Assembly: GCA_964347025.1 (NCBI GenBank)
Contig: CAYFWU010000001.1
Span: 26,081 to 90,080, forward strand
DNA: 64,000 bases
Direction: 5' to 3'
Origin: an uncultured archaeon
GTDB taxonomy: Archaea > Aenigmatarchaeota > Aenigmatarchaeia > QMZP01 > QMZT01
Position 1 is the stretch's first letter. Each line of letters opens with the position of its first letter. Positions 14,105 through 61,193 of this stretch are shown here, piece by piece. The notes below the pieces were generated by a model. The model was not told where the DNA came from. It made no database searches and saw nothing but the letters and a program-made list of their open reading frames with translations. The translations under genes and the position numbers were made by a program.

Positions 14105-14742
14105 ATCATCTTCTCTATCTTCTTGACTTCTTCAAGGGGAGAACATATCGTGATTATATCCCCTTCTTTTATCTTGGTTTCCGGTTTTGGTATAAGGAGT
14201 TTATCACTCCTGTATATGAAGGCTATGGTGAACCCCTTTGCAATATCTACAACGGCTTTGTTTGTAAATTTCGAATCCTTGCTTACACTTACCTCGAAGA
14301 CTTCACCCTTACCTTCAGCCACTAAATTGATCAGCTGTTTACCTGGTTTTTCCAGAGCTTTCTTAAAGGCAAGTGTTGCCGTGTTTGTTGTATTGATGAG
14401 ATTCGTGATACCTATCTTTGTGAATATCCCTTCATTGTCTGACTGGTTTATCCTCGTTATAATATTGGGGACGTTAACACCCTTCGCCACCTCACAGACC
14501 ATCAAATTCGTCTTGTCGTCCGACGTGACGCTAACGACGGCGTCAACATTCCCTATGTTGGCATCCTTAAGAATGTTTTTATCTGTTCCGTCCCCGTGCA
14601 GAACAAGGGCATCAAGTTTTTCAGCCAGCTCTTCTGCCAACTTTTCATCCTTTTCTATGACGACCACATCATGCTTTTCCTTTATAAGCAATCCGGCCAA
14701 GGCCTCACCAATCGCTCCACCACCGACGACAATGATCTTCAT
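14101..14742 (-). CDS. trkA: TrkA-type K+ transport NAD-binding regulatory protein (TrkA-N plus TrkA-C)
   Basis: N-terminus MKIIVVGGGAIGEALAGLL is a Rossmann fold. A C-terminal TrkA-C-like domain is present. Length 213 aa. Confidence 0.8.
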   Translation of the reverse strand: MKIIVVGGGAIGEALAGLLIKEKHDVVVIEKDEKLAEELAEKLDALVLHGDGTDKNILKDANIGNVDAVVSVTSDDKTNLMVCEVAKGVNVPNIITRINQSDNEGIFTKIGITNLINTTNTATLAFKKALEKPGKQLINLVAEGKGEVFEVSVSKDSKFTNKAVVDIAKGFTIAFIYRSDKLLIPKPETKIKEGDIITICSPLEEVKKIEKMI

Positions 14743-14780
14743 TTTATCACTTAATATATAACGGGTGTAGTTAATAACCT

Positions 14781-15254
14781 TTACCAGACAATTACCCTCA
14801 GTTTGACCAGTTCGTTATTTTCGTTCAAAACACCCAACCTTTCTATCTCCGCCTTCTCCGTGCCTGCTGGAATGGTGTAGCCGCAGTCCAAAACATAGGT
14901 TCCAGATTCTGAGGTCAAGGTTATGTTTATATTATGCATCCTATCTCCGTACTCTGTTTTTTCTATCAGATCGAAGTCCCTTCTGAGTTGCGTATAACCG
15001 CCATTACAATATGTTGCGTTAAAGTTTCTGATCTTGCTTATGTTGAAAAGGGATGGACCCTCGACAAGGGAGATGGAGGACTTATCGTTCCCCAGTATCT
15101 CTGATATTTGTAATGCCTTGCTTTGCAACTTATCCATATAGAATTTCCCACGAAAATCAGAAACATTTGCATTCAAAAAATTCATTGCATAAAGAACGAT
15201 AGCAAAAAATATTATGCCTGCAATGAGAAACTCAAAAACAAACTGACCTTTCAT
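14781..15254 (-). CDS. archaeal type IV pilin-like protein (class III signal peptide)
   Basis: N-terminus MKGQFVFEFLIAGIIFFAIVLYA is a short basic KG followed by a hydrophobic helix, the prepilin-peptidase-type signal. It is divergent from the paralog array. Confidence 0.55.
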   Translation of the reverse strand: MKGQFVFEFLIAGIIFFAIVLYAMNFLNANVSDFRGKFYMDKLQSKALQISEILGNDKSSISLVEGPSLFNISKIRNFNATYCNGGYTQLRRDFDLIEKTEYGDRMHNINITLTSESGTYVLDCGYTIPAGTEKAEIERLGVLNENNELVKLRVIVW

Positions 15255-15321
15255 AATAATTTTTTCTTTTGAACCATAATATAATTAATACCTTTTTATT
15301 TGAAACTGCCAAAATATAATT

Positions 15322-16278
15322 ATGAGACGGGTTTTGTCCTTGATGCTGTTGATGCCCATGTTAATGGTCTCAGGTTGTGTAATACCAGGAACAGACTTTA
15401 GGATACCAATAATTTCTGATCTCTTTGGTCCGCCCATTGAGGAATTCAGGCACGATGTCGTTTTCATACAAAGTTTGCAGGCAATACCTTCACACACCAT
15501 AAGATCCGGTCAGGCCCTAACCTTACGGGCTTACGTACAAAACCTTCAGAAACCAGAGAGCGACCCACAGAATGACGTGGAAATCGAATTGTACGATGAT
15601 TGTGGGATATTTGATGTCAGAAAGAGCATATGCACAGGCGGGACTTTCCAAGGAGAAACGAAATGCAAAATTACGAAGATGTATCCGCAGTCCACAGCGA
15701 TAGTTGACTGGAAGATGACGGCAAAGCCAATGAAGATAAAAACACCCTGCGATGTCGGGGTTCTCGTGAAGTATACTTACACAACTCATACCACATCTTC
15801 GGCAAGCTTTGTTAATCAGGAGGAACTGGAAAACCTGATAGCACAGGGTAAACAGTTCAGCGAAAAGGGAATGATAGTTGTTGGTGAGGGCCCTGTCAAA
15901 TCATACATAGAGGTTCCGGACCAGCCGATAATGGTGGACATCAGGGGAGGCGATGGAACAGGAAAGGGCATGATGACGTTCTGGGTAGAAAACAAGGGAA
16001 AGGGAGAACTCGAGGGCAACAAAATAATCAAGGATAACATAGACATAGAGTGCGGAGACCAGGTGACTGGTTGCGAAAACTGCGAGAAAAAGATAGACGA
16101 AGATGGCCTGCAGCTCATCGGAAGAAGCTCTCCAAAATTCTCATGTGAAATAGAACCAAGAAACAAAGGATTTATAACACAGGAGAAAACATATCAACTA
16201 ACCTCGAAAATAACCTATTCTTACAAATTCACCAAAAAGATCAAACTGACGATAGAACCAGAGATCAAATTGGATTGA
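15322..16278 (+). CDS. secreted lipoprotein, paralog 1 of a four-gene tandem family (two beta-sandwich CARDB-like domains)
   Basis: Signal peptide plus lipobox MVSGC. Shares the family C-terminal block KITYSYKF...LTIEP and the central THTTSSASFVNQEELENLI block with paralogs 2-4. Confidence 0.5.
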   Translation: MRRVLSLMLLMPMLMVSGCVIPGTDFRIPIISDLFGPPIEEFRHDVVFIQSLQAIPSHTIRSGQALTLRAYVQNLQKPESDPQNDVEIELYDDCGIFDVRKSICTGGTFQGETKCKITKMYPQSTAIVDWKMTAKPMKIKTPCDVGVLVKYTYTTHTTSSASFVNQEELENLIAQGKQFSEKGMIVVGEGPVKSYIEVPDQPIMVDIRGGDGTGKGMMTFWVENKGKGELEGNKIIKDNIDIECGDQVTGCENCEKKIDEDGLQLIGRSSPKFSCEIEPRNKGFITQEKTYQLTSKITYSYKFTKKIKLTIEPEIKLD

Positions 16279-16328
16279 ATATTGAGAGCAAATTAAGTTT
16301 ATAAGCGTAACTGGTCAAATATTTAAAG

Positions 16329-17300
16329 ATGAAGAGAACAGCTTTCGGAAAGAACGCGAAGTTCTTTTTGCTGTTATTTATTGCTGCAGGTCTAACTGTG
16401 ATTTCTGGTTGTACACTGCCCGGTATAGGGCCGAGTACAGGGGGAGGACAGGGAGTTGCTGTTGACATCTTTCAGCCAACACTTGGACAGACAACACCCA
16501 TAGAATCAGACGAACCAGTGAGTTTCCATTTGGAGGTTATTAACAGAGGAGACTACAACAACGCTCCAGCAGTTGCGGAACTTACAGGAATAGACACGAC
16601 AGAATGGAACGTATTCGGAGATGTTTACAGGGACCTTGGCCTTTTGCTTGCCCCGGATCCAGAGTCGCAGACTGAGGGGGGAAGAGGAAGAGCTGACTGG
16701 GATGCAATAACACCGACACTTGCCAGAAACCAGAAGATGACTTACGAACCTATCGCAAGGGTTTACTATTACTATGAAACACACGTAACAAAACCCGTAT
16801 GGTTTGTGACATCAGAAGAACTGAGAAGGGTCGTACAGGGAGCAGGAACCCTAGACAGCGAAACGACAACACCATGGAACGGACCGTTAACAGCCACGGT
16901 TGACACAGGAAATTTCGTTAAGGCAAGGGACTGGAGAGAATCAAAATTCCAGCTCCAGATCAGGATAGATAACACCGGTGGAGGACAGATATTTGGAAGG
17001 GATTATCCAGTTGCCGTTGAGGTAATATGGCCAGATGGTGTTATACCAGTTGGTGATTGCCCGAGACAGATCCAGTTCGGATCAGGGATTTATGAAAACT
17101 TGCCACCATTCCTGTCAACACCTGCATTCGGAAGGTTTGTCAGGGTTTGGAATGGTCAGTACACAGACATAACATGTGAATTCCAGGTGACAAATCCACC
17201 AACAAACAAGGTTAAGAAAAACTTTGAGGTAAAGCTTGGCTACATATACTACGTGGATGCAGCAAGTCATATAACAGTTAAAGGGTTCGAGGAATTCTAG
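16329..17300 (+). CDS. secreted lipoprotein, paralog 2 of the tandem family
   Basis: Lipobox VISGC. Motifs VINRGD (CARDB-like N-x-G), LLAPDPESQTEGG, YYYYETHVTKPVWFVTSEELRRV, IDNTGGG, and KLGYIYYVDAASHITVKGF. Confidence 0.5.
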   Translation: MKRTAFGKNAKFFLLLFIAAGLTVISGCTLPGIGPSTGGGQGVAVDIFQPTLGQTTPIESDEPVSFHLEVINRGDYNNAPAVAELTGIDTTEWNVFGDVYRDLGLLLAPDPESQTEGGRGRADWDAITPTLARNQKMTYEPIARVYYYYETHVTKPVWFVTSEELRRVVQGAGTLDSETTTPWNGPLTATVDTGNFVKARDWRESKFQLQIRIDNTGGGQIFGRDYPVAVEVIWPDGVIPVGDCPRQIQFGSGIYENLPPFLSTPAFGRFVRVWNGQYTDITCEFQVTNPPTNKVKKNFEVKLGYIYYVDAASHITVKGFEEF

Positions 17301-17351
17301 GGGTTTCCATTCATTACCTCTTTTTATTTATTTTTAGACAATTATATAACT

Positions 17352-18335
17352 ATGAATAGCCAAAAAATTATAGTTTCATTTTTTGTTTTGTTCTCTTTAA
17401 TCCTGGCCTCAGGATGCGTAATGCCTGGCTTACCATTTAATTCTCAGACACCAGTAGGAACAGGTATCGTGATTGAAAGCTTCAGGACAGACCCAGAATT
17501 GAGCGAGGTATATTCTAACGAGGAGATAAAGTTTATTCTAAAGTTTAGGAACACAGGGACGGTAAAAGTAGAGAACTGTTATGCAGAGGTTCTTGGTTTG
17601 GACCAGATGTGGAAGGGAAAAGATGATGCAAGGAAAAACCCTAGTAATCAGGAGGTTTTCCCGTATGAGAGGGAGTGCCAGTATGACCAGAGAGGAAGCT
17701 GGATAGTCCTGTTACCGCCAGATCCATCAACCGGAATAGAAGGTGGGGATCACATATGCACATGGGGCTACATAGCTCCGGATGTCCCTCCAGGTATCCA
17801 CGCTGATTACAAACCGAGGGCTCGCGTTTTCTATGATTACAAAACACATGTTGTGAAAACAATAACCCTTGTCCCACAGGACGAGTTAAGGGTGATCCAG
17901 AACCAGGGGAAGAGCCTTCCTGTAGAAACAACCAGCGAATCTGGGTCCCCGATATCCCTGGATATTGAGACCAGAAGTCCCATAAGAACCTATGGGAAGA
18001 GTATGACGTTCCCTATGGTCATCAAGGTAGAAAACATTGGAGGAGGAACGGTCTGCTCAAACAGTGAAAATTGCAGGAAATATGCCGAAGGGGGTGCTCT
18101 ATGGAACCAATTCAGACTAACCATAGAACTTCCCGATGGCATGGGTTTTGAACAGGGGAGCTGTACCGGAAACGAGGATGTCTATTTGGTCATGGGAAAG
18201 TCGCAGACGATTTCCTGTAAGGTTCAGGTTCACACCATACCAGAAAGGCTGATACAGAAGAACATAAGACTTACAGCTGAATATGGTTACTTTATAGACA
18301 AGACCATCGAAATAAGGGTTCTCCCAAGCGGATAA
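17352..18335 (+). CDS. secreted lipoprotein, paralog 3 of the tandem family
   Basis: Lipobox LASGC. Motifs FRNTGT, LLPPDPSTGIEGG, FYDYKTHVVKTITLVPQDELRVIQNQGKSLP, VENIGGG, and TAEYGYFIDKTIEIRV. Confidence 0.5.
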   Translation: MNSQKIIVSFFVLFSLILASGCVMPGLPFNSQTPVGTGIVIESFRTDPELSEVYSNEEIKFILKFRNTGTVKVENCYAEVLGLDQMWKGKDDARKNPSNQEVFPYERECQYDQRGSWIVLLPPDPSTGIEGGDHICTWGYIAPDVPPGIHADYKPRARVFYDYKTHVVKTITLVPQDELRVIQNQGKSLPVETTSESGSPISLDIETRSPIRTYGKSMTFPMVIKVENIGGGTVCSNSENCRKYAEGGALWNQFRLTIELPDGMGFEQGSCTGNEDVYLVMGKSQTISCKVQVHTIPERLIQKNIRLTAEYGYFIDKTIEIRVLPSG

Positions 18336-18366
18336 AGATAAAAGCATCGTATTTCAATATAAAATT

Positions 18367-19293
18367 ATGGCAAGGACAATTCAGTCACTTTTGCTAATTT
18401 TTTGTTTGATTTTGGTATCAGGATGTATAGGCCAACAGACATCTTCTGGCGATGGGCTGGTCATAGAGAATTTTGTATCCAACCCGTCTGAAATATATTC
18501 CGGAGAATCGTTTCAACTTCAGCTGATGGTGAGAAACACAGGCATCTCCGATGCAAAAAACGTTAGATTTGAGCTTTCCAACATAGGAACCACCTATGGA
18601 AGCAGAGGGCTTGAAATATCCTGTGAACCAGAATGTTTGGATGTAATACAAAGCTTACTCGCCCCAGACCCCCAGGCAGGAACCACAGGAGAATCAAGAA
18701 CATGCATATGGAATTGCTTCGCCCCCCAAGACGTCCCTAGAAACGCGAAACTTACGTTTAACCCCAACCTGAGGATATACTATGACTATGAGAATACGAT
18801 CGTCAAGTCCGTCACAATAGTATCAGAGGACGAATTGAGATCAATACAGTCACAGGGGATACCACTCCCAAGCGAGGTTGTTAGCCCATCAGGAGGCCCG
18901 GTAACACTGAGCATACAGATGAGGAGCCCTGTTAAGTATATAGAAAACTCAAATACAGTAACCTTCCCGATAGCCATAACAATTGAAAATGTTGGTGGCG
19001 GTGTGGCTTGTCATCCGAGTTGTAGTGACCCGAAAAACTGGAACAAGGTATTTTTAGGTCTGGGCCCGGAATCTGGAATGAACCTGAAAGACTGTGAAAT
19101 AGTGATGTACAACGAAATTGATTTATGGGAAGGTCGGAGCAGAACAATTGTTTGTGACGGAGAGCTGTCCCTGTTTTCTGAGATGAGCGGCAGGAGGACG
19201 GGGATCAACCTGCTGCAAAAAACCTTAGAGATAAAGGCAAGCTATGAATACTTTGTAGACACTTCAACTTCTATAACGGTGACAGGGTTCTAA
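18367..19293 (+). CDS. secreted lipoprotein, paralog 4 of the tandem family
   Basis: Lipobox LVSGC. Motifs VRNTGI, LLAPDPQAGTTGE, YYDYENTIVKSVTIVSEDELRSIQSQGIPLP, IENVGGG, and KASYEYFVDTSTSITVTGF. Confidence 0.5.
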   Translation: MARTIQSLLLIFCLILVSGCIGQQTSSGDGLVIENFVSNPSEIYSGESFQLQLMVRNTGISDAKNVRFELSNIGTTYGSRGLEISCEPECLDVIQSLLAPDPQAGTTGESRTCIWNCFAPQDVPRNAKLTFNPNLRIYYDYENTIVKSVTIVSEDELRSIQSQGIPLPSEVVSPSGGPVTLSIQMRSPVKYIENSNTVTFPIAITIENVGGGVACHPSCSDPKNWNKVFLGLGPESGMNLKDCEIVMYNEIDLWEGRSRTIVCDGELSLFSEMSGRRTGINLLQKTLEIKASYEYFVDTSTSITVTGF

Positions 19294-20540
19294 TTGAAAT
19301 CTTTGAGTGTCTTCTGCGGCTTTTTCAAACCCTCACCTTTATCCTCTTTCAGCATGATCTTTCCATAAACCCCATCATAACCAGCCCTTACCTTTATGCC
19401 CCCAGATCTGACTTTTAGTATCAAATCAGCTGTTTTTTCACTTATTATGTTCTTCATCTGTTCTTCATCTGCCTTTATCAAAACATTGAGTTCAGAACCA
19501 AAGGCATTGATCAACTTGTTATATTCCGTCCATACCCTTTGCGAGTTTACTGCAGAACCAAGGGCTATTGATATTATCTCTGACAAGGGAATAATGGATT
19601 TGAAAGGCTTGGAGCCTTCCGGGACGAACCCCTCCTCCCTGTCTGCAAGTTCCTCAACTCTGTGCAGAACACCGACAGTTAAGGGCTTCCTGCAGACAGG
19701 ACAAATATTTTTTGAACGTCTTGCCTCTTCAGGCGTTAATGAAATCCCGCATTCCCTATGTCCGTCGTGGTGATACTTCCCATAGCTGGGATCAACCTCT
19801 ATGGTTTCTACAAGACCCTCCTTCGTTTTTATGGCCTTAACGATGTTTTCATACGTTATTTCTTTAAATTCGAAAACCGTGGCCTCTCTTCCGATTCTCC
19901 AAGGCCAGAACGAATGGAGATCTGAGAAAGAAACAAGGGCAAATCTATCAAGAGACGACAGTCTCCAGTTCATTTCAGGATTTGATGATAATCCGGTTTC
20001 AAGAGCGAATATGTTTTTTATCTGGTCCTGGAAACAATCCTCTATTCTGTCAAATCCGGATTTGGATCCAAAGAGGGAAAACCACGGCGTCCATATATGG
20101 GCTGGTATTACCATGCAATCCTCAGAGATGCCAATAATGTTTTCAACAAGCTCCGTGCAACTGAAACCAAATATCGGCCTACCATCATAATCAAGCCTCC
20201 CCCTTTTCGACAGCCACCCGTTTATCTGGTCAACTGTTTCGAAATCTTTAGCGAAAATTATGTTATGTATCCTCCTCTGTCTGTTATCCTGGGTGTAGAT
20301 GTTCGAAAGTTCTGTTGAAAGCAAAAAATTGAAACCGTCCTTGCTCTTCAAAATCCCAGACCCATCCTCCACGAGCTTCTCTCTTAACTCTTTCAGCCAT
20401 AAAGGATGCGTGAAATCTCCTGTTCCAAGTAAATTTATTCCCTTTATTTTTGCGTACTTGACGAGATTCTCTATGTTCAATTCCTTGCTTGTGGCCCTAG
20501 AGAATCTTGAATGAATGTGAAGATCGGAGAATATTCTCAT
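19290..20540 (-). CDS. PHP-family phosphoesterase with Zn-ribbon (COG1379-like)
   Basis: N-terminus MRIFSDLHIHSRFSRAT is the PHP histidine motif. An internal CPVCRKPL Zn ribbon is present. Length 416 aa. Confidence 0.65.
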   Translation of the reverse strand: MRIFSDLHIHSRFSRATSKELNIENLVKYAKIKGINLLGTGDFTHPLWLKELREKLVEDGSGILKSKDGFNFLLSTELSNIYTQDNRQRRIHNIIFAKDFETVDQINGWLSKRGRLDYDGRPIFGFSCTELVENIIGISEDCMVIPAHIWTPWFSLFGSKSGFDRIEDCFQDQIKNIFALETGLSSNPEMNWRLSSLDRFALVSFSDLHSFWPWRIGREATVFEFKEITYENIVKAIKTKEGLVETIEVDPSYGKYHHDGHRECGISLTPEEARRSKNICPVCRKPLTVGVLHRVEELADREEGFVPEGSKPFKSIIPLSEIISIALGSAVNSQRVWTEYNKLINAFGSELNVLIKADEEQMKNIISEKTADLILKVRSGGIKVRAGYDGVYGKIMLKEDKGEGLKKPQKTLKDFN

Positions 20541-23097: not shown

Positions 23098-23532
23098 ATG
23101 AAAAAGGGAATAACCCCCATCATCGCAATAATAATTTTGCTGCTTATAACAATAGGTCTTGCAGCAACAGCATGGACGTATTTATCAGGGTTTTTGGCCG
23201 GTTACACCAAGTCACTACAGTTAGTAGACTCATATTGTATGGGCGCTACAACAACCACTGTAGTACTCAGAAACACAGGACCAGATCCGATAGCATTGGG
23301 TGCATCTTGCAGTATAAGCGGCAGTGTAATGACATGCGGTTCTATGACAGTAACGAGAACTGATGCCAACCTGGATGCCAGTGCAGCTATAAGTACATCA
23401 GGAAATCTTGCAGCAGGATCGACATTTACGTTCACGGATGTATGTACACCGGCAGGTACACCGGCAGTTTGTACGTACAGGTTTGTTGCAGGCGGTACAG
23501 GAGCGACTGTGGTTTCAGTGCCTTGCGGATAA
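23098..23532 (+). CDS. archaeal type IV pilin-like protein (class III signal peptide), Thr/Ala/Gly-rich C-terminus
   Basis: N-terminus MKKGITPIIAIIILLLITIGLAATAW. A GGAGGT SD lies 5 nt upstream. Confidence 0.5.
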   Translation: MKKGITPIIAIIILLLITIGLAATAWTYLSGFLAGYTKSLQLVDSYCMGATTTTVVLRNTGPDPIALGASCSISGSVMTCGSMTVTRTDANLDASAAISTSGNLAAGSTFTFTDVCTPAGTPAVCTYRFVAGGTGATVVSVPCG

Positions 23533-29872: not shown

Positions 29873-30721
29873 TTGATTGTTATGTTCAAGATTCTCACCA
29901 AGAACCCACTAGAATTGAAGAGGTTTGTTGATGTAGAAAAACCTGTGAATGAAATATCTTCGAAAAAACTAACGGTTTCTAAAGAAAGCGATAAACTCCG
30001 TTCCGTTATCAACCTCATACTTAAGAAATACAGAAGAATCCCAATAATTGACAGCCACAACCATTTGAAAGGAATAATTACAGCTACCGATGTACTAAAC
30101 ATTCTTGGTGGTGGAGAGAAAAATAAAGTTTTCCTGAAATACAAGAAGAGTTTTAACATACCTGCCAGAAAGGTGATGGAAAGACACGTTTTGACGATAG
30201 ATAAAAAAACGTCCATAAAGAAAACTTTAGAAATATTCAGAAGGGAGGAGAGGGGAGCGTATCCCGTGGTATATAAGAAGAAACTGGTGGGAATTGTATC
30301 AGAATGGGACCTTGTAAAACAGATAAGAGAAAAGGTTGATTTTCTGGTTGAGGACATCATGGTCAGAAAACCAATGATAGCAAAGCCAAATTACTCTCTA
30401 CTCGACACATCAAAAATAATATGCAGAGGCGGTTTTAGAAGACTCCCAATTGTTGATGACAACGTACTGGTTGGCATAGTGACACCAAAGGATATAATCG
30501 GACATTTAAATGAAAAGGGATTTCTGGACAAGTTGACCATGGTAAAGACGAAGACCAAGGATGTTATGAGGAAGAACGTTATTGTTGTCGATCCACGAAC
30601 AGAACTTTTTGAAGCAATAAAAATAATGAAAAAGAAGAGGATAGGAGGTCTTCCTGTAACCGATGGAGACGACCTTATAGGAATACTGACAGAAAGAGAC
30701 ATTGTAGATGCGTTTTTATGA
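29873..30721 (+). CDS. CBS-domain protein (four CBS repeats)
   Basis: Repeated motifs of the form (I/V)P(I/V)xDxxxxLxGIxTxxDI(L/V). Confidence 0.7.
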   Translation: MIVMFKILTKNPLELKRFVDVEKPVNEISSKKLTVSKESDKLRSVINLILKKYRRIPIIDSHNHLKGIITATDVLNILGGGEKNKVFLKYKKSFNIPARKVMERHVLTIDKKTSIKKTLEIFRREERGAYPVVYKKKLVGIVSEWDLVKQIREKVDFLVEDIMVRKPMIAKPNYSLLDTSKIICRGGFRRLPIVDDNVLVGIVTPKDIIGHLNEKGFLDKLTMVKTKTKDVMRKNVIVVDPRTELFEAIKIMKKKRIGGLPVTDGDDLIGILTERDIVDAFL

Positions 30722-31173
30722 CAAAGAACAGAATTATAACAATCGAGAAACTCAGAGAGCTTTTAGATGACCTTAGTGATAAACTTTTGATAGTTGAAGG
30801 CAAGAACGATAAAAAAGCTTTAAAAAGCCTAGGATTGAAAAATATTATTGCCATCGATGGCAGACCACTTTACGAGGTGGTTGAAAACATAGAAACAGAT
30901 AAGGAGATTGTAATACTTACAGACTTCGATAAAAAGGGCAGGGAGATCGGAAAACGACTGAAATACCTGCTCCAGAAACATAAAAAAAGAATAAACTCAA
31001 AATTGAGAGGTAAGACAATGTCTTTAGGAAAAAATCAAATAGAAGATTTGGCAAATTTGAATAGCCAAATCGCTTTTAAGGAGGTTGATATTCATGTCAA
31101 AACTCGCGCCAACATCAATAAAATATCTGATAAAGGCACAAATAAACGCAAAAGGGGTAATAGAGAAACCTGA
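30718..31173 (+). CDS. small Toprim-domain protein (COG1658/RNase M5-like)
   Basis: LLIVEGKNDKKALKSLG...AIDG...ILTDFDKKGREIG contains the Toprim E and DxD motifs. A 4-nt overlap with the upstream CBS gene. Its 3' end overlaps the DnaG start region. Confidence 0.55.
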   Translation: MTKNRIITIEKLRELLDDLSDKLLIVEGKNDKKALKSLGLKNIIAIDGRPLYEVVENIETDKEIVILTDFDKKGREIGKRLKYLLQKHKKRINSKLRGKTMSLGKNQIEDLANLNSQIAFKEVDIHVKTRANINKISDKGTNKRKRGNRET

Positions 31174-32278
31174 TGTAATAGGAGCTATTTTTGGGCAGAC
31201 AGAAGGTTTGCTTGGACCAGATCTGGATTTAAGGGAACTGCAGAGAACGGGAAGGATAGGAAGGATTGAGGTCAACATAAAATCAGAAAAGGGTAACTCT
31301 TACGGTGAACTAATAATACCTTCATCCTTGGATTCAACAGAAACAGCTTTGATAGCAGCAACATTGGAGACGATAGAAAGGGTGGGACCATGCATAGCAA
31401 AAATCACGCTGAAATCAGTTGAGGACACAAGGGAGATGAAGAGGAAATTCGTGGTTGACAAGGCAAAGATAATCCTGAAGGATTTGTTAGAGAAAGGTTT
31501 GCCCGATACCACAAAGATAACAGAGGACATAAAGGAGGAGATAAAGACACACGAGATAACGAGCTACAAAGGACTGCCATGCGGACCAAATCTACTCGAT
31601 TCTGATGAGATAATAATTGTGGAAGGACGAGCAGACGTAGTGAATCTTATAAGGTATGGAATAAAAAATGCCATAGCAATAGAAGGCAGTTCAATTCCAC
31701 AAACTATAATAGATATCTCGAAGGAGAAGATAACCACGGCTTTCTTGGACGGAGACAGAGGTGGGGACTTGAATCTGAAGGGCCTCATTGAAACAACGGA
31801 TCTGGATTACATAGCTGTCGCCCCGCCTGGCAAAGAGGTAGAGGAACTATCTAAAAAAGAGGTTTTTAAGTGCCTTAGGGATAAGATATCATCTTCCCAG
31901 TTTAAACTCGAAAAAACCAACAACTTAAAAAGGGAAGAAAAAAGGCCAATGGTTGTGAAGAGGGAATACACAAAACCCATGATAAGAATTACAGAGGATC
32001 AGAAGAAGGTATTCAAGAAAACCTTGGAAGAGCTGATAGGGACGAGAGCTGCCTGTATTTTTGATTCGAGTTTCAATCTGCTAGGTAAGGTTCCCGTGAA
32101 GGAATTGATAAATACTTTGAAGACCGTAGAAAATCCTTATGCGGTTATATTCGACGGCAGGATTGACTACAAACTGGAATCAATTGCGAAGAGAAAAGAC
32201 ATAAAGTTTCTCGTGGGCATGGAAAAGGAAAACATTAGATCCTCTGTGGGTATACTTTCCAAAGAGGACCTTAAGTAA
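31085..32278 (+). CDS. dnaG: archaeal DnaG-like primase (Toprim; exosome-associated). The likely true start is at Met 31094 (MSKLAP...).
   Basis: N-terminal SIKYLIKAQINAKGVIEKPDVIGAIFGQTEGLLGPDLDLRELQRTGRIGRI is the archaeal DnaG signature. A Toprim motif is present (IIIVEGRADV, 31615-31644). Confidence 0.8.
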   Translation: MIFMSKLAPTSIKYLIKAQINAKGVIEKPDVIGAIFGQTEGLLGPDLDLRELQRTGRIGRIEVNIKSEKGNSYGELIIPSSLDSTETALIAATLETIERVGPCIAKITLKSVEDTREMKRKFVVDKAKIILKDLLEKGLPDTTKITEDIKEEIKTHEITSYKGLPCGPNLLDSDEIIIVEGRADVVNLIRYGIKNAIAIEGSSIPQTIIDISKEKITTAFLDGDRGGDLNLKGLIETTDLDYIAVAPPGKEVEELSKKEVFKCLRDKISSSQFKLEKTNNLKREEKRPMVVKREYTKPMIRITEDQKKVFKKTLEELIGTRAACIFDSSFNLLGKVPVKELINTLKTVENPYAVIFDGRIDYKLESIAKRKDIKFLVGMEKENIRSSVGILSKEDLK

Positions 32279-38221: not shown

Positions 38222-39907
38222 TTACTCTATAATTCCCAATCCTGTTGATGATTCAAGTAACTTCTTCACCTGTCTGGTTTTCGTTTTGTATGGGGGTAGA
38301 TTTTTGTTGACCCATTCCATTATGATTGAAGGTTCCTTGTAATATATGTTGATTAGTTTGCATACTTCCCTGTAATCTGTTATAGCGAACTTCCTCATCC
38401 ATTCCAGAATCTTCGCCCGGTTTTTTATCTCCTCCGTCATCTTTTCATAAGACATGCCCCTGTCGAAAGCGATTCTTTTCAGAAGATACGAAGTTTCAAA
38501 GTTAGATCCGAATGAATCTGTTGAAGGAACCCAATCAAATGTTTTTATTGTATGGGGGCTCCCTGTCTTCGGGTCAACTGATTCTATTTCCACTATACTT
38601 TTAACCCTCCTTGCAGATTTCCCCTTTTCCTTTGCATTGACCATTACTATCACGAGATCAAGGGTTTCTATCAAACTGGGGGATAGTTCTATTGGAGGGG
38701 TCTCCAAACGCTTGATAACGTCTTCTATTGAGCCGGCGTGTATAGTTCCTATAGACGAGTGTCCTGAAGCCATGCCCTGGAACATCACGTATGCCTCTTT
38801 ACCTCTGACTTCCCCAACTATAACGTAATCAGGATTCTGCCTGAATGATTCCTTAAGAAGTTCAAACAACGTAACCTCTCCGTACCTCTTTCCTGAAGCC
38901 TCTGGAACACCAAATCCAACTCTAGACACGCTTGGTATCCAATTTTCATGCGGAAGATTGAGCTCGCGGGTGTCTTCTATGGAAACGATTTTGTCTTCAG
39001 GCGGTATGAACATACTCATCGAATTCAAAAAAGTTGTTTTTCCGCTTGAAACACCACCACATATTAATGTCGAGGCCCTGGCTTCTGTAACCATCCAGAT
39101 GTATGCCATGAGTTCAGAGGAGGCCGTATTCAAATTTATAATGTCAATGGGCGAAAAGGGCTCTATACGAAACTTTCGAATGGAAAATGTTGGACCCTTA
39201 GTGGTTACATCCTTCGCTAAAGTTGCCTGAACCCTCGAACCATCTGGAAGTGAACCATCGAGAAGTGGTTTTGCATAGGATACGTATCTCCCACAACGTT
39301 CTGCCAACTTTATCACAAAATTGTTGAGGTAGCCGCCATCAGTGTAAACAATGTTGGTTTCAGTAGAACCAAACTTTCTGTGAACAACAAAAACAGGTAT
39401 CCCCAGGCCAGAACAACCTATGTCCTCTATGTACGGATCATGCAGAAGACCTTCGATCTCGTTGAAACCAACAAAATCCCTGTATATGTAATAGCTGATC
39501 TTGACATAGGTTTCTGAGCTCAAAACTATATTTTCATCCTCGAGTATACCTGCCAGCTTTTTCTGTATGTATTCGAATGTCTTTCCCCTGTCCTTTATCG
39601 CTGAGAGCTCAACATCTATTGTTTCAAGCAGATCCTTTTTCACGGTTTCCAGAACTTTTACCTCTCTTTCCGAAAGTTTGGGTTCTATAATGTTATATAC
39701 AAGACCCTTTTTTTCGGCGTCCCATTTTATCTTTGCATAAACAAACGGCTCAAGGAGCGGGTATTTTATATCAACTTCTGTCATTTTTTTGAGTGAGGGA
39801 AAAATTATTAGGTGTTTAGGTTCTTTGATCTCAACAACAGGATATTCTACCCTCCCTTTACCTTTCATTCTGTCTATCTTCTCTCTGAGAGCACCCCTCA
39901 AAGTCAT
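38222..39907 (-). CDS. FlaI/PilB-type secretion ATPase (T2SSE/VirB11 family) of an archaeal type IV filament system
   Basis: Walker A LICGGVSSGKTT, Asp box, Walker B IVGEVRG, and a His box. Length 561 aa. Confidence 0.8.
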   Translation of the reverse strand: MTLRGALREKIDRMKGKGRVEYPVVEIKEPKHLIIFPSLKKMTEVDIKYPLLEPFVYAKIKWDAEKKGLVYNIIEPKLSEREVKVLETVKKDLLETIDVELSAIKDRGKTFEYIQKKLAGILEDENIVLSSETYVKISYYIYRDFVGFNEIEGLLHDPYIEDIGCSGLGIPVFVVHRKFGSTETNIVYTDGGYLNNFVIKLAERCGRYVSYAKPLLDGSLPDGSRVQATLAKDVTTKGPTFSIRKFRIEPFSPIDIINLNTASSELMAYIWMVTEARASTLICGGVSSGKTTFLNSMSMFIPPEDKIVSIEDTRELNLPHENWIPSVSRVGFGVPEASGKRYGEVTLFELLKESFRQNPDYVIVGEVRGKEAYVMFQGMASGHSSIGTIHAGSIEDVIKRLETPPIELSPSLIETLDLVIVMVNAKEKGKSARRVKSIVEIESVDPKTGSPHTIKTFDWVPSTDSFGSNFETSYLLKRIAFDRGMSYEKMTEEIKNRAKILEWMRKFAITDYREVCKLINIYYKEPSIIMEWVNKNLPPYKTKTRQVKKLLESSTGLGIIE

Positions 39908-42175: not shown

Positions 42176-42619
42176 TTAGTAAGCTGGGAAACCGAGCCCC
42201 CTTATATCGTACTTACCTATGAGATCTTGTGCCCCCCTGCACTGCAAGGATTGTATAACGACTTTTTCAAGATTGTCAGCTGCTGGGAAAACTACTGTTT
42301 TTATATCCTGAGATATTATTTCAAGATTCTCCAGACCAGTTCTCTCCGAAGCTACTGTATTATTTTCATAGGTTATTCTTGCAACAAAGCCCTTCAAAGG
42401 AACATCACCTGTATTGAACAACGCTACGGTAAGGTTCTTCGTCGAGTTATCGAAGTTCGCATTCTGAATAAGCAATTGAGCCCTAGCGCAGAACTGAAGT
42501 TCCTCCCTCTGCTGGGTAACGAAAGTGGTTGCCCAACCAGCTAGAATTCCTGCAACTATCATGGTAAACGCTATCAACATTATCACTGCAATAAGAGGGG
42601 ATATACCCTTTCTCCTCAT
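42176..42619 (-). CDS. archaeal type IV pilin-like protein (class III signal peptide)
   Basis: N-terminus MRRKGISPLIAVIMLIAFTMIVAGILAGW. Confidence 0.5.
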   Translation of the reverse strand: MRRKGISPLIAVIMLIAFTMIVAGILAGWATTFVTQQREELQFCARAQLLIQNANFDNSTKNLTVALFNTGDVPLKGFVARITYENNTVASERTGLENLEIISQDIKTVVFPAADNLEKVVIQSLQCRGAQDLIGKYDIRGLGFPAY

Positions 42620-42623
42620 CTCA

Positions 42624-43112
42624 TCACTCCTTAATTATATCCTTTTTAGGAATCTTGGCTGAAAATGCAGGGCATGCCTTATTGAAGACAGTTACCTCTT
42701 CCGCCGTTCTCGCCAGCTCCGCGTAGTCACCCTGCGTTCCGTTAAGATCGACAACTATTATGGCAGATCTCTGTTCAGTTAAAGGATATTCCTTGCTTAG
42801 ATTTGGTGTTACCTTTATATCAGAGCTTGTATCGTTGTAGGTAACTATGTTGGTTAAATTCATTATTTGTACACTGAACCCGTAGATCTGTATAGTACCC
42901 AAGTTTTTAACAACCATTGTAAGATTTTTATTGTTGCTGGTGTATGTCGCTGACTCTATATTGTAGTTCGTTAATGCCACACACTGAGTCGTCACACCTG
43001 TTTGACTTGTAACCCAATGGGTCACCCAAGATGATATCATCACCCCAACTGCAACACTTATTGCTATTAGCACGACGGCAGCTATTATAGGGGAAATTCC
43101 CTTCATGCCCAT
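42624..43112 (-). CDS. archaeal type IV pilin-like protein (class III signal peptide)
   Basis: N-terminus MGMKGISPIIAAVVLIAISVAVGVMISSW, in tandem with the previous pilin. Confidence 0.5.
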   Translation of the reverse strand: MGMKGISPIIAAVVLIAISVAVGVMISSWVTHWVTSQTGVTTQCVALTNYNIESATYTSNNKNLTMVVKNLGTIQIYGFSVQIMNLTNIVTYNDTSSDIKVTPNLSKEYPLTEQRSAIIVVDLNGTQGDYAELARTAEEVTVFNKACPAFSAKIPKKDIIKE

Positions 43113-46526: not shown

Positions 46527-48017
46527 ATGAAAATCTATTTCATTTTTTTGATACTCTCCCTCTTTCTGATCAGCAATGTCCAAGCAATCGTTATAAACGA
46601 GTTCATGCCGAACCCCCCTGACGTTCATGACAGCTCTGAATGGATTGAGATCACAAGCCACTTTAATACGTCCTTGAAGAATATAGCAGTTGATACCGGC
46701 AACGGGCCGATAACCCTGAATGGCTCTATCGAGGAGAATGAATTCATAATAATCACGAAGAACTCAAGTGCTTTCAAAAAGATATGGGATTCGGAAGTTA
46801 GAATTTTCGAAAGCAGTAAGGTCAAACTCAACAACAAAGGAGATAATATTTCGCTCTACAATGGTTCATCACTTTTACAAAAGATAGAATACAACGCTTC
46901 TGAAACTAACATATCATATGGTCTATGCAATTCGACTTTTATCCTCCAGAACATCTCTACCCCCGGCCTTCCCAACATATGTCTTTCAGGAAATACGAAC
47001 CAGACCAATGAAACCAACGAGACGGGAATGACGAACGAAACCTGCGATCTTTCGTTAACTATAGCATCAGATCTGATTTTCATTTCAGGCGAAAAACACA
47101 ACTATTACCTGAGTGTTGAAGACAAAAAATGTGATCAGAAAGAAAAGGAAGTAAGCATAGAATACTGGATAGAAGACCTATTCGGAGAGATGATAAGATC
47201 CAGATATACCACTACACAGAGCATCACATGCTATAAAAATATATCCAGACAGTGGACCCCAAAAGAAACTGAAGGTTCAGAAGCCTTCTATATAAAGGCA
47301 AGGATAACCAATTTAACCTGTAACGATTCCGACCATTCTAATGATCTCGCTGAAAAAGTAGTTATTGTTAAGGGCAGAATCCCCGATTCAGAAGAATGCC
47401 CTCCATGTGAAATAAAGGAAACAACCTGCTCATACGGGTCCTGCCCAAAATGTATTTGCGAAGAGGAAGAAGAAAAAGAGACAAAAGACTTCAAAATAAT
47501 TTCCTTTCCTGAAGAAATAGAAAAAAATAAAGAAATAGAAATAGAGGTCGAAATAAACAACACCTCCATCTACCGAAAGGACTACACAGTATATTCATAT
47601 GTTTACGAAGGAAACAAAATCCTTTCCGAAGGTTTTGATGGGAATTTTTGGTTCAATACATGGGATGCCAACAGGCAGAATGTGAGTATACCCGGAAATT
47701 CTTCTATTACACTTACACTTAAAAACAGAATCGCAATCGATACAAAACCAGGGAAATACGATCTAAGGGTAAGAATACGGTTTGACGACGAAAAACGCGA
47801 TCTTACAAAGAATATCATAATCAAGGAATCATTTCCAAAACCAAGCAACCAAACAATTGAAGAGGAAAACGAAGCATCGGATGAATTTAACTTTACGAAC
47901 GAAACAATCGAAATGGATTTACCAACGGGAAGAATAATTTCAAAAAGAGAAGAGAATTGGTTTTCTACTTTTATAGAAAACGTAATAAATTTCTTTAAAA
48001 ACCTCTTTAATCTATAA
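46527..48017 (+). CDS. secreted lamin-tail-domain (LTD) protein, sequon-dense and Cys-rich
   Basis: Signal peptide MKIYFIFLILSLFLISNVQA. The LTD signature is INEFMPNPPDVHDSSEWIEI. More than 20 N-x-S/T sequons are present, including NQTNETNETGMTNET. A Cys cluster is CPPCEIKETTCSYGSCPKCIC. Confidence 0.55.
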   Translation: MKIYFIFLILSLFLISNVQAIVINEFMPNPPDVHDSSEWIEITSHFNTSLKNIAVDTGNGPITLNGSIEENEFIIITKNSSAFKKIWDSEVRIFESSKVKLNNKGDNISLYNGSSLLQKIEYNASETNISYGLCNSTFILQNISTPGLPNICLSGNTNQTNETNETGMTNETCDLSLTIASDLIFISGEKHNYYLSVEDKKCDQKEKEVSIEYWIEDLFGEMIRSRYTTTQSITCYKNISRQWTPKETEGSEAFYIKARITNLTCNDSDHSNDLAEKVVIVKGRIPDSEECPPCEIKETTCSYGSCPKCICEEEEEKETKDFKIISFPEEIEKNKEIEIEVEINNTSIYRKDYTVYSYVYEGNKILSEGFDGNFWFNTWDANRQNVSIPGNSSITLTLKNRIAIDTKPGKYDLRVRIRFDDEKRDLTKNIIIKESFPKPSNQTIEEENEASDEFNFTNETIEMDLPTGRIISKREENWFSTFIENVINFFKNLFNL

Positions 48018-48040
48018 ATAGAATCATCAATTACTATTTT

Positions 48041-48114
48041 GGGCCTGTAGCTCAGTTGGATAGAGCAGTAGCCTCCTAAGCTAAAGGTCGGGGGTTCGAA
48101 TCCCCCCAGGCCCG
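48041..48114 (+). tRNA. tRNA-Arg (anticodon CCU)
   Basis: Cloverleaf: acceptor GGGCCUG/CAGGCCC, D-arm GCUC-AGUUGGAUA-GAGC, anticodon loop CU-CCU-AA, T-arm GGGGG-UUCGAAU-CCCCC, discriminator G. Length 74 nt. Confidence 0.8.
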
Positions 48115-48209
48115 TACTAACGTATGACGACTTGGAACGAAAGTGAAGGTCGTCTTACGAAAATTTGGGTAAAGATAGTTTTATAACTTTTCAAAAATAA
48201 ATTATAAGC

Positions 48210-59105: not shown

Positions 59106-59978
59106 TTAAAATAGTTTTATTTGGAACTGTCCAAGGAGGGAGAATATTGTGTAACCTATGACTACCAGGACCAGTGAATGTTTGAACCCGGCCACGAGCG
59201 AGCCTTCGGCCATCTTCCCCGTGGCAAGTCCTGCAAAAAAACCCTGCACAATTATAAAGTTTACGAATGTCTGGGAGTAAAGTTCTGCTGGCATTTGTCC
59301 TGTATCCTCCTCTAAGCCGCCAGCTATTGTTGCAGTTCCAAGGGCAGGTATCAGAAACGCCTGTAGTATGACAAGGATGAATATGAAGACAAAGAATATG
59401 AGATAGGAAGTTACGATTTGCGCTTGCACGGAGGCCGAACGTTCCTGCTTTATCTTGTTTATCTCAACAAGTGACTGACCTATTGCCTTCAGCGTATCCG
59501 AAATCTCGCCACCGACCTTATAGGTTTCTATTATTGTCCCGACAGATCTTTTGATGGGAACAGACCCCACCTTTTCTGAAAACATGGATAGCGCCTGCTC
59601 GAAGGGGACGCCCCAGTCAACCTTGCTGTTTATCTCCTTGACGTAAGGGGTCAGAACGCCGTAACCCCTCTTTACAGAGTGTTTCAAAGCGATTGGTAGC
59701 GTCATCCCGGAATCTATCGCTTCTGTTAGGTCGGTGATAAACATAATAAACTGTTCCTCTATCTCCTTCCCTATTTTGTATCTTGAATAGAACAACAGGA
59801 AGGGAGGTATTATTGCTATCAGGGCTCCAAGCATGTTGATTAACGGGGTTATGAAGGGGAAAAGAATTGAGATTACAAAAAAATTCAGAATCAGGATAAT
59901 AACCCCTAATACAACAAACATGGCCTCAAATACCAAGATCCTGTACTTCTTAATGCTAAATTTCATGCCAGACATCAT
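59106..59978 (-). CDS. TadC/FlaJ-like type IV filament platform membrane protein (single T2SSF-like domain)
   Basis: 290 aa. The N-terminal TM pair, a cytoplasmic ~110-aa domain, and C-terminal TMs fit GspF/TadC topology. 4-nt overlap with the upstream paralogous gene. Confidence 0.55.
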   Translation of the reverse strand: MMSGMKFSIKKYRILVFEAMFVVLGVIILILNFFVISILFPFITPLINMLGALIAIIPPFLLFYSRYKIGKEIEEQFIMFITDLTEAIDSGMTLPIALKHSVKRGYGVLTPYVKEINSKVDWGVPFEQALSMFSEKVGSVPIKRSVGTIIETYKVGGEISDTLKAIGQSLVEINKIKQERSASVQAQIVTSYLIFFVFIFILVILQAFLIPALGTATIAGGLEEDTGQMPAELYSQTFVNFIIVQGFFAGLATGKMAEGSLVAGFKHSLVLVVIGYTIFSLLGQFQIKLF

Positions 59979-60853
59979 ATCCCCGGATATGTTACATGTA
60001 TGAATGCGAGATACGAAACGTTAAGTATTGGTAACATCACCCATGTTATGAGCAACATAACATCCTGTATCCCCAGACCCATCACCTGACCGCCTATTAT
60101 GCTCATCGTTGCCAGAAGGGCGAGCATCATCAGGGGGGCGGCCACGAGCAAGGCAGTATAAATATCTGCGTAGGTCGAAAGCGTCTTCATATATTTTTCC
60201 CTCTTAATCCTGTAATCAAACAATGCCTTGTCCGCCATCTCTCTTAAATACGACATAAGATTCCCACCTGTTTCTATTGTTGAAACAATCCCCAGCAGCA
60301 ACTCCCTGAATTCCTGCGATGGGGTTATATCCCCAACGTTTTTGATGGCATCAACGCTGCTCATTCCAAACGTTTTTATGTTCCTCATTATCAGTCTTGA
60401 TTCCTCTGATATCTCTCCGTACTCTTTGAAACCAGTCAGCAATTCAAAAACGAATTCTGGTGGTATGCCAGAGGAAGCAATGGCAGCCATGTGCGTTATG
60501 GCGAAGGGAAGATTGTTTTCAATGCTACTCTTCCTCGATTTTTCCCTCTGAACAGGATACAGGTAGAAAATTATGAATGCGACCGAAGCCACGAAAACAG
60601 GAAAGAACACTATCGTGAAGACATAAATGTAAAATTCAATTTGTATGAAAAAGGTGAGAACCACATATGTGGCGATGAACGCTATGATGAATAGCAGAAC
60701 AGTTGTAAACAGTATGAGGGAAACCCAAGTTTTCAACAAAATCTTCATGTTGGCATTTTTTATGTGCGGTTCTAGGGGTCTGAATGAATCTATCCACTTA
60801 TCAACAAGTCCTCCAAAAAAGACCAGTGACAACTTTTTGTAGAATGACAACAT
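59975..60853 (-). CDS. TadB/FlaJ-like type IV filament platform membrane protein (single T2SSF-like domain)
   Basis: 292 aa with the same topology as the neighbour. Together they resemble a split FlaJ/TadB-TadC pair. Confidence 0.55.
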   Translation of the reverse strand: MLSFYKKLSLVFFGGLVDKWIDSFRPLEPHIKNANMKILLKTWVSLILFTTVLLFIIAFIATYVVLTFFIQIEFYIYVFTIVFFPVFVASVAFIIFYLYPVQREKSRKSSIENNLPFAITHMAAIASSGIPPEFVFELLTGFKEYGEISEESRLIMRNIKTFGMSSVDAIKNVGDITPSQEFRELLLGIVSTIETGGNLMSYLREMADKALFDYRIKREKYMKTLSTYADIYTALLVAAPLMMLALLATMSIIGGQVMGLGIQDVMLLITWVMLPILNVSYLAFIHVTYPGI

Positions 60854-60914: not shown

Positions 60915-61193
60915 ATGGTAGGGACTAGACTGGGAGGTTAGGCGTCTCCTGTAACCATAAACCGCCTTCATGATGGAGTCGAAGCCTAAAGGCGATATTG
61001 GGATATCAAAAGGCCCGTGGTCCCAACTGAGAAGCTCTGTCCTTCAGGGTTTTTAGTATGATGAACCGGGTCAGGACCGGAAGGTAGCAGCCCTAAGTTA
61101 TATTAGCGACGCTTGAAGGGTAGCGGAGTGGAGGAGGGATTGTGGATAAACCTTTTGGTTGATCAATGTCCACTGATGGTGTGTCCCTACCTT
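60915..61193 (+). ncRNA. ffs: signal recognition particle RNA (7S/SRP RNA)
   Basis: The conserved helix-8 motif is ...GGTCAGGACCGGAAGGTAGCAGCC.... The 5' GGTAGGGAC pairs perfectly with the 3' GTCCCTACC (helix 1). It is followed by a T-tract and lies upstream of the BRE/TATA. Confidence 0.7.

Follow-up and report, generated by a model that had tools for sequence, protein, structure and literature searches.

A conserved array of paralogous lipoproteins with a divergent pilin-like partner: a candidate cell-envelope module of Aenigmarchaeota

We examined a 64,000-nucleotide stretch of DNA from an uncultured archaeon of the Aenigmatarchaeota (assembly GCA_964347025.1, contig CAYFWU010000001.1, positions 26,081 to 90,080 of the forward strand), hereafter called the window, which carries a five-gene module whose role as a conserved part of the Aenigmarchaeota cell envelope we infer rather than demonstrate. 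A pilin-like gene on the minus strand (14781..15254; 157 amino acids) is separated by a 67-bp divergent intergenic region (15255..15321) from four consecutive plus-strand genes for predicted lipoproteins, here called p1 (15322..16278; 318 amino acids), p2 (16329..17300; 323 amino acids), p3 (17352..18335; 327 amino acids) and p4 (18367..19293; 308 amino acids). The open reading frame (ORF) list agrees with the coordinates of all five ORFs in the original prediction, and the array does begin 67 bp from the divergent class-III gene, as had been claimed (starts at 15254 and 15322). All five genes are annotated as 'hypothetical', and 100%-identical database proteins are found in a Candidatus Aenigmarchaeota metagenome-assembled genome, which bears out the earlier guess that the DNA is from a DPANN archaeon.

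The N-termini of p1 to p4 consist of a basic n-region and a hydrophobic h-region followed by VSGC, ISGC, ASGC and VSGC, respectively, and all four conform to the lipobox pattern [LVI][ASTVI][GAS]C at the end of an n/h-region signal peptide. The proposed lipoboxes, MVSGC (p1, Cys19), VISGC (p2, Cys28), LASGC (p3, Cys22) and LVSGC (p4, Cys20), thus close typical signal peptides as originally described, and their G-C pair is shared by all 36 aligned family members. The same pair occurs in every paralog of the approximately 25 loci sampled, with S at -3 in some. Export by the twin-arginine translocation (Tat) pathway was considered and rejected, because an RR pair is present in the window copy of p1 alone and is not conserved in its orthologs. 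Lipidation of the lipobox Cys through a thioether would probably proceed via the AliA/AliB pathway. These two proteins were the first components of archaeal lipoprotein lipidation to be identified by experiment, and they were reported in DPANN, in which lipoproteins are also reported to be prevalent (PMC12462473). Like the archaeal lipoproteins matured by AliA/AliB, the array proteins have a canonical lipobox, an invariant Cys and a Sec-type signal peptide (PMC12462473; PMC13631571), and AliA/AliB-family genes adjoin the array in two loci. In these two loci, L024 (4774-5742, minus strand) and L026 (357-1160, minus strand), a membrane protein matching PF01889 (DUF63 = AliA_AliB) takes the place of the pilin-like gene (E values of 2e-48 and 2e-55). 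This adjacency lends contextual support to the assignment of the family as lipoproteins. No AliA gene lies inside the 64-kb window. The archaeal lipoproteins characterized so far come largely from haloarchaea, where they bind solutes or act in redox reactions; the array proteins have a different fold, and their lipidation is predicted.

Pairwise identity is 22-24% between p1 and the other copies, 29% between p2 and p3, and 37% between p3 and p4, which is close to the approximately 25-35% first estimated. BLAST scores among p2, p3 and p4 range from 97 to 173 bits. The p1 protein has no significant BLAST match to the other paralogs and is the most divergent copy, whereas p4 is closest to p3. A profile alignment (hhalign) of 16 p1 orthologs with 21 p3 orthologs gave a probability of 99.1% and E = 7e-19 over 294 columns. 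Because BLAST connects p2, p3 and p4 and the profile match connects p1 to p3, we regard all four lipoproteins as true paralogs. The family-specific motif blocks noted earlier are present in p2 to p4, but the version in p1 is degenerate though recognizable. Directly behind its lipobox Cys, p1 carries a conserved peptide, C-x-I-P-G-x-D-x-x-I-P, which in its orthologs reads C-T-I/V-P-G-x-D-I-E-I-P-F-L-P-D-I-F; the other paralogs have a G/S/T-rich segment at this place. Domain 2 of p1 also accommodates an insertion of 0 to approximately 70 amino acids, depending on lineage and often with extra Cys residues (columns ~300-390 of the ortholog alignment, corresponding to residues ~240-265 of the window copy, which is short). 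Besides the lipobox Cys, p1 has 8 Cys residues, p2 has 2, p3 has 6 (conserved) and p4 has 8. These are all even counts, as expected of disulfide-bonded extracytoplasmic domains.

None of the four proteins matches a Pfam or NCBIfam family above threshold, and a profile search against all PDB sequences found nothing for the lipoprotein family, in keeping with the earlier statement that it could not be placed in any characterized family. The closest sequence signal is to CARDB (PF07705), for which p4 scores 20.4 bits (E 6e-4; below the gathering cutoff of 22.7) and p1 to p3 give no match. Sub-threshold CARDB matches occur in 16 of the 36 family members (E < 0.1; best 1.4e-4), and a few members match DUF11 or NEW3. 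A single member exceeds a gathering score, with one precomputed NEW3 match. An AlphaFold2 model of p3, run with a 36-sequence alignment (predicted local distance difference test [pLDDT] score 89.1; predicted template modeling [pTM] score 0.82), has a signal helix, a disordered tether of approximately 15 residues, and two all-beta domains. The beta-sandwich domains span residues ~39-173 and ~190-324, are linked by a short helix (176-185), and display the seven-stranded immunoglobulin (Ig)-like fold of CARDB. Together with the sub-threshold matches, this model upholds the proposal of two beta-sandwich domains with a remote CARDB-like signature. Its structural neighbors are generic Ig-like/CARDB domains only. 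Fold comparison of p3 yielded no match to known pilus accessory proteins or PapD-like chaperones, and no confident sequence or fold match links the lipoproteins to solute-binding or S-layer proteins. The two domains of p3 orthologs match each other weakly but collinearly by hhalign (probability 6.9%, E 0.005), which is at most suggestive of an internal duplication.

The CARDB, DUF11 and NEW3 domains (PF07705, PF01345, PF10633), which are beta-sandwich domains of prokaryotic surface proteins, are among the closest known kinds to the lipoproteins. However, a fixed two-domain lipoprotein of approximately 300 amino acids with a conserved inter-domain helix and Cys pattern, present as an array of three or four orthologous paralogs, is not among the described CARDB architectures. 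The macroglobulin (MG) domains of alpha-2-macroglobulin lipoproteins and complement align only as single domains at 7-11% identity, and the array proteins, at about one-fifth of the size, have neither a thioester nor a bait region.

The divergently encoded protein begins with MKG/QFVFEFLIAGIIFFAIVLYA (the slash marks the predicted cleavage site), a class-III-type signal with Gln at +1 and Glu at +5. It combines a short charged N-terminus, a residue of the G/A type at -1 and a hydrophobic helix of approximately 20 residues. The residues K, G, Q, F6, E7 and F8 of this N-terminus are invariant in orthologs down to 30% identity; one pilin-like ortholog has A at -1 (KAQ). In the AlphaFold2 model (pLDDT 84.6), a helix of 53 residues (2-54) precedes six strands, and the head is an alpha/beta domain with two conserved Cys residues. 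No Pilin_N or Class_IIIsignal match was obtained for the window protein (E <= 1) or for nine orthologs (E <= 0.1). The protein aligns with DUF7287 (PF23958) at 17.7 bits (E 0.006), which is below the gathering threshold of 27 bits, although the alignment is collinear and full-length (residues 2-157 versus 3-157 of the 157-position model), and sub-threshold matches to the same family occur in four of nine orthologs (best E 1.1e-4). A profile search for homologs of the pilin-like protein returned hits whose named sources are Aenigmarchaeota and one Micrarchaeota; no hit carries DUF7287, and a literature search found nothing on DUF7287 or its sibling DUFs. The protein resembles archaeal type IV pilins (Pilin_N PF07790; Class_IIIsignal; DUF7287 PF23958) in its basic N-terminus, G/A at -1, Gln at +1 and Glu at +5, as well as in its long alpha-1 helix, globular head and many N-x-S/T glycosylation sequons. 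The designation of this gene as a pilin therefore stands with respect to the class-III-type N-terminus and long helix, but not with respect to pilin Pfam matches or to the head, which matches no solved pilin. 'Pilin-like' seems to us the apt label, with the N-terminal sequence and the modeled helix as its basis.

The module is conserved well beyond the window. A profile search of 1.84 billion representative proteins with the lipoprotein family produced 1944 matches at E <= 1e-3 and 275 at E <= 1e-30. The best 150 of the 1944 are mainly full-length proteins of approximately 270-360 amino acids, plus some shorter fragments. Genomic context was sampled at 20 loci from a genome scan and 6 from look-ups of distant matches. 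The scan loci are titled Aenigmatarchaeota or 'uncultured archaeon', except for one that is labeled Micrarchaeota and has the same flanking genes. At 21 loci, the sampled ones with an intact left boundary, the pilin-like gene precedes the array in divergent orientation, such that the predicted synteny holds widely but not universally (L024 and L026 depart from it). BLAST matrices reveal positional orthology (p1 with p1, p2 with p2, p3 with p3) in 20 or more genomes, in which there is no copy-number expansion, shuffling or hypervariable cassette. These results agree with the view that the duplications are ancient and that each copy has been kept. Deep-branching loci have three paralogs (L021-L023, L024 and L029) or two (L026). 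Consequently, the p3/p4 split is younger than the other splits, and the ancestral array, as reconstructed from these sequences, is one of two or three genes. In L027, genes other than the usual TrkA and PHP/thermosome flank the module on both sides, and yet the pilin-like gene and the array are still together, which argues for functional linkage. The sole domain fusion seen is a distant family member of 472 amino acids in L026 (2124-3542, plus strand), which has an extra C-terminal region of approximately 150 amino acids; a Pfam scan of this protein produced a match to the N-terminal domain only. To the right of the array in most loci (exceptions are L027 and L003/L020) is a PHP-type gene (DLHIHSRFSRA), which in the window (19290-20540, minus strand) is convergent with p4 and has a 4-bp overlap with its stop codon. 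Orthologs of this PHP-type protein carry the precomputed annotation MJ0043_C.

Each module gene is preceded by a TATA-like box centered approximately 27 nucleotides upstream of the ATG and then by an AT-rich stretch that continues to the ATG. The divergent region holds two such boxes, at 15275-15284 for the pilin-like gene and at 15293-15301 for p1, located approximately 21-30 nucleotides from the respective ATG. The plus-strand promoter regions of p2, p3 and p4 (intergenic regions 16279..16328, 17301..17351 and 18336..18366) contain TTTATAA at 16298-16304 (-31 to -25), TTTTTATTT at 17321-17329 (-31 to -23; kept in orthologous loci) and GATAAAAG at 18337-18344 (-30 to -23), respectively. The boxes persist among genomes that share only 45-50% protein identity, and so the earlier assignment of a separate TATA-like element to every lipoprotein gene is correct and extends across genomes. 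No Shine-Dalgarno motif is present upstream of any of the five genes, the divergent region included. Other genes of the window have GGTG or GGAGG Shine-Dalgarno motifs (e.g., those at 20882, 23098, 40268 and 32336), and start contexts in the window fall into two classes, with either a Shine-Dalgarno motif or a TATA-like box approximately 27 nucleotides upstream without one. It is plausible from these signals that the module genes are individually promoted and yield leaderless transcripts.

A further property of the lipoproteins is their avoidance of N-x-S/T sequons. In 76 mature lipoproteins of the sampled loci (23,329 residues), only 13 sequons occur, versus 168 +/- 12 expected from composition-preserving shuffles (z = -12.6), and p1, p2, p3 and p4 of the window have zero each. 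Control tripeptides are present at normal levels (S/T-x-N 132, N-x-x-S/T 170, Q-x-S/T 143, D-x-S/T 187). Proline at position x blocks glycosylation, and 18 of the 31 N-x-S/T tripeptides in the lipoproteins have Pro at this position. Among the 13 true sequons, 6 fall in the tether just behind the Cys. The pilin-like orthologs (n = 18) are the opposite, with 63 sequons versus 24.4 +/- 4.5 expected (z = +8.7); the window copy has 4, and an N-V-S near residue 30 is conserved. Long flanking ORFs, which are mostly cytoplasmic, have sequons near the level predicted by composition. The shuffles and five control tripeptides rule out a composition artifact as the cause of the depletion, and a genome-wide trait of secreted proteins is likewise ruled out in that other secreted proteins of the window are sequon-rich. 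Because other exported proteins are rich in these sites, the lipoproteins seem to be exposed to active glycosylation and to have been selected to remain bare. Judging from the sequon counts, then, the glycosylation machinery is evidently active and sequons are selected against only in the lipoproteins. A literature search on archaeal sequon depletion found nothing relevant. Divergence of the module genes is also approximately double that of the housekeeping genes beside them, a rate that would be expected of exposed proteins. For example, identities between the window and L007 are 84% for the thermosome and 80% for TrkA, versus 56% for the pilin-like protein, 40% for p1 and 36% for p4.

Elsewhere in the window, a secreted protein of 496 amino acids (46527-48017, plus strand) has 23 N-x-S/T sequons versus 6 reverse tripeptides, a cleavable Sec-type signal peptide (MKIYFIFLILSLFLISNVQA), and a weak match to a Lamin-tail domain (E 1e-4). 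Its sequence makes it a candidate major surface glycoprotein or S-layer protein.

Genes for type-IV-filament components are scattered across the window rather than organized in one operon. On the minus strand are a T2SSE ATPase gene with a PilB3_C domain match (38222-39907), two adjoining T2SSF platform genes (59106-59978 and 59975-60853), and two adjoining pilin genes with the N-terminus KG/ISP (42176-42619, with a Pilin_N score of 24.7 bits that is just below the 25.2-bit gathering cut-off, and 42624-43112, which is of the Pilin_N type). A third pilin gene, encoding MKKGITPIIA, is on the plus strand (23098-23532) downstream of the thermosome gene and is syntenic in other loci. No prepilin peptidase (Peptidase_A24) gene lies inside the window. 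'System 1' loci, which combine two platform genes with numerous accessory proteins, were described in DPANN by a recent survey (bioRxiv 10.64898/2026.04.22.720090), and the two adjacent T2SSF genes of the window are a hallmark of this system. An archaeal signal recognition particle (SRP) RNA (161.5 bits; 60918-61190, plus strand) is encoded directly upstream of the platform genes. In L024, a filament locus with a T2SSE/PilB3_C ATPase (14172-16852) is located approximately 5 kb downstream of the array. It includes a pilin with a Pilin_N-type N-terminus (no Pfam match) and two KAQ-type class-III proteins, one of which has a weak DUF7266 match (E 2e-4). This layout hints at a former loose linkage between the array and the filament genes.

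Otherwise, the window consists of housekeeping chromosome, with genes for PolB, Cdc6, the thermosome, aminoacyl-tRNA synthetases and ribosomal proteins as well as the SRP RNA. Its sole tRNA is tRNA-Arg(CCT) (48040-48115, plus strand). Two overlapping plus-strand ORFs in different frames (30718-31173 and 31085-32278) both match Toprim domains; they may be parts of a primase-like gene that is split or frameshifted, or may result from misassembly.

Our tentative reading, which we consider quite possible though short of probable, is that the module encodes a heteromeric envelope complex that is anchored by lipid, rich in disulfides and free of glycans, together with a pilin-like partner that is glycosylated. 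The four paralogs would be exported by the Sec pathway, lipidated on the lipobox Cys, and tethered to the outer face of the membrane by a linker of 10-20 residues, each as a rigid pair of disulfide-stabilized beta-sandwich domains. Because there is one copy per type, the order is fixed, and the folded domains are nearly free of sequons, the paralogs might pack together close to the membrane as a glycan-free hetero-oligomer whose subunits cannot replace one another. The pilin-like protein would be cut after Gly3 by a prepilin (class III) peptidase, and its hydrophobic helix could either hold it in the membrane or allow its extraction by the type-IV-filament machinery of the genome. Its head would bear N-glycans, and it could be a fifth subunit or a client of the complex. 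Such an assembly would likely contribute to envelope architecture or form a fixed contact or anchoring site, as opposed to a variable set of adhesins.

Several points weigh against this proposal. Physical association of the five proteins is our supposition, and presence throughout the phylum is judged from a sample of approximately 25 loci plus the 1944 representative matches. The deep-branching loci L024 and L026 lack a pilin-like gene in the neighborhood of the array, which can therefore exist without an adjacent partner. The head of the pilin-like protein matches no solved pilin. Each gene has its own promoter instead of being part of one operon. Furthermore, single-copy retention would fit four separate, non-redundant functions equally well, and sequon avoidance could result from folding constraints of disulfide-rich sandwiches and not from packing.

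The module might instead be an accessory part of a type-IV-filament machine, in which the pilin-like protein is a minor pilin that primes or caps a filament of Pilin_N-type pilins and the lipoproteins form an extracytoplasmic base, collar or anchoring ring, a role comparable to that of the lipoprotein and beta-sandwich accessories in the bacterial type IV pilus, type II secretion and Tad systems. The class-III-type N-terminus, Glu+5 and 53-residue helix of the partner are consistent with this possibility, as are the weak DUF7287 matches in its orthologs, the DUF7266-like class-III protein that L024 encodes 5 kb downstream of the array within a pilin/ATPase operon, and the T2SSE ATPase, two T2SSF genes and three Pilin_N-type pilins of the window. 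The DPANN 'system 1' loci with their many accessory proteins (bioRxiv 10.64898/2026.04.22.720090) also fit. However, the module never adjoins ATPase or platform genes in the loci examined (the distance is 19-45 kb in the window), the array stands beside AliA without the pilin-like gene in two loci, and the fold does not match known pilus accessory proteins or PapD-like chaperones, which makes an accessory role unlikely in our estimation. A reading in line with the original prediction of a cell-surface or host-attachment module is that the paralogs are independent surface adhesins for a host or substrate, with the pilin giving reach. Adhesins often contain CARDB/Ig-like domains, the module evolves more rapidly than its neighbors, p1 has a loop of variable length in domain 2 (0 to approximately 70 amino acids), and Aenigmarchaeota are considered symbionts (PMC8407114). 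Nevertheless, strict one-to-one orthology without expansion, shuffling or cassettes in 20 or more genomes, a short tether that would keep the proteins near the cell's own membrane, and a housekeeping chromosomal context leave this explanation decidedly unlikely. Avoidance of sequons over the whole surface is also atypical of archaeal surface adhesins and contrasts with the sequon-rich sequences of other secreted proteins in the window. Single-copy retention, the housekeeping neighborhood and sequon avoidance are better fit by a fixed structural complex than by a variable adhesin repertoire.

Ig-like domains are typical of archaeal S-layer proteins, and the lipoproteins could accordingly be viewed as abundant, lipid-tethered lattice proteins that form or anchor an S-layer. 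Each gene has a strong-looking, conserved promoter, and sequon-free surfaces would permit tight lattice contacts. We find this very improbable. The S-layer proteins of archaea tend to be large and to carry many glycans, and a lattice of three to four different small subunits would be out of the ordinary. The lipoproteins match no known S-layer protein in sequence or fold, and the protein encoded at 46527-48017, with its 23 sequons, is a much stronger candidate for an outer glycoprotein. Alternatively, there may be no joint function at all, with four separate ligand- or metal-binding lipoproteins and a pilin-like gene that is a mere syntenic neighbor. The individual promoters, the metal ions bound by the CARDB domain structure 3idu, and the replacement of the pilin-like neighbor in two loci would all be compatible with this scenario. 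It is highly doubtful, though, in light of the fixed gene order and shared short divergent promoter region in 21 loci and the joint occurrence of the pilin-like gene and array in the new context of L027. In addition, the fold is unlike that of solute-binding proteins, and no transporter genes are linked save that for the cytoplasmic TrkA regulator.

The proposed complex also invites comparison with bacterial minor-pilin sets and their accessories, such as GspH-K plus pilotin of the type II secretion system (T2SS), PilP of type IV pili (T4P), and TadD/RcpC of the Tad system. In these sets, as in the module, one pilin-type protein is coupled genetically to several small membrane-tethered extracytoplasmic proteins. 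Unlike these sets, the multiple paralogs here are lipoproteins and not pilins, there is no sequence or fold relation, and neither an outer membrane nor linkage to ATPase and platform genes is involved. The parts of the module are known, namely CARDB-like sandwiches, lipobox lipoproteins and class-III signal proteins, although no defined family contains them. The novelty lies in the combination: orthologous paralogs in a fixed array, a pilin-like gene beside them, and an asymmetry in glycosylation sites. No paper in the literature library that was searched mentions the module.

To our knowledge, nothing has been established experimentally about DPANN cell surfaces beyond a few cultured lineages, and we know of no cultured representative of Aenigmarchaeota with a described envelope. 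The module offers clean candidate substrates for the AliA/AliB lipoprotein pathway in DPANN, and its conserved leaderless-type promoters could be used as expression signals. The 13-fold, motif-specific loss of glycosylation sites in the lipoproteins beside a sequon-rich partner is an unusually sharp evolutionary signal, which points to glycan-free packing. If the complex exists, then it would provide a marker and a target (e.g., for antibodies in fluorescence in situ hybridization or cryo-electron tomography) for the study of cell-surface organization. The further possibility that the module forms a lineage-defining, previously unrecognized envelope structure, in which a membrane-tethered, glycan-free hetero-oligomer of three to four ancient paralogs surrounds a glycosylated pilin-like subunit and perhaps gives these ultrasmall cells a fixed site of contact or anchoring, is somewhat doubtful at present. 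If true, archaea would have a surface assembly of a new kind, intermediate between a type-IV-filament component and a lipoprotein scaffold.

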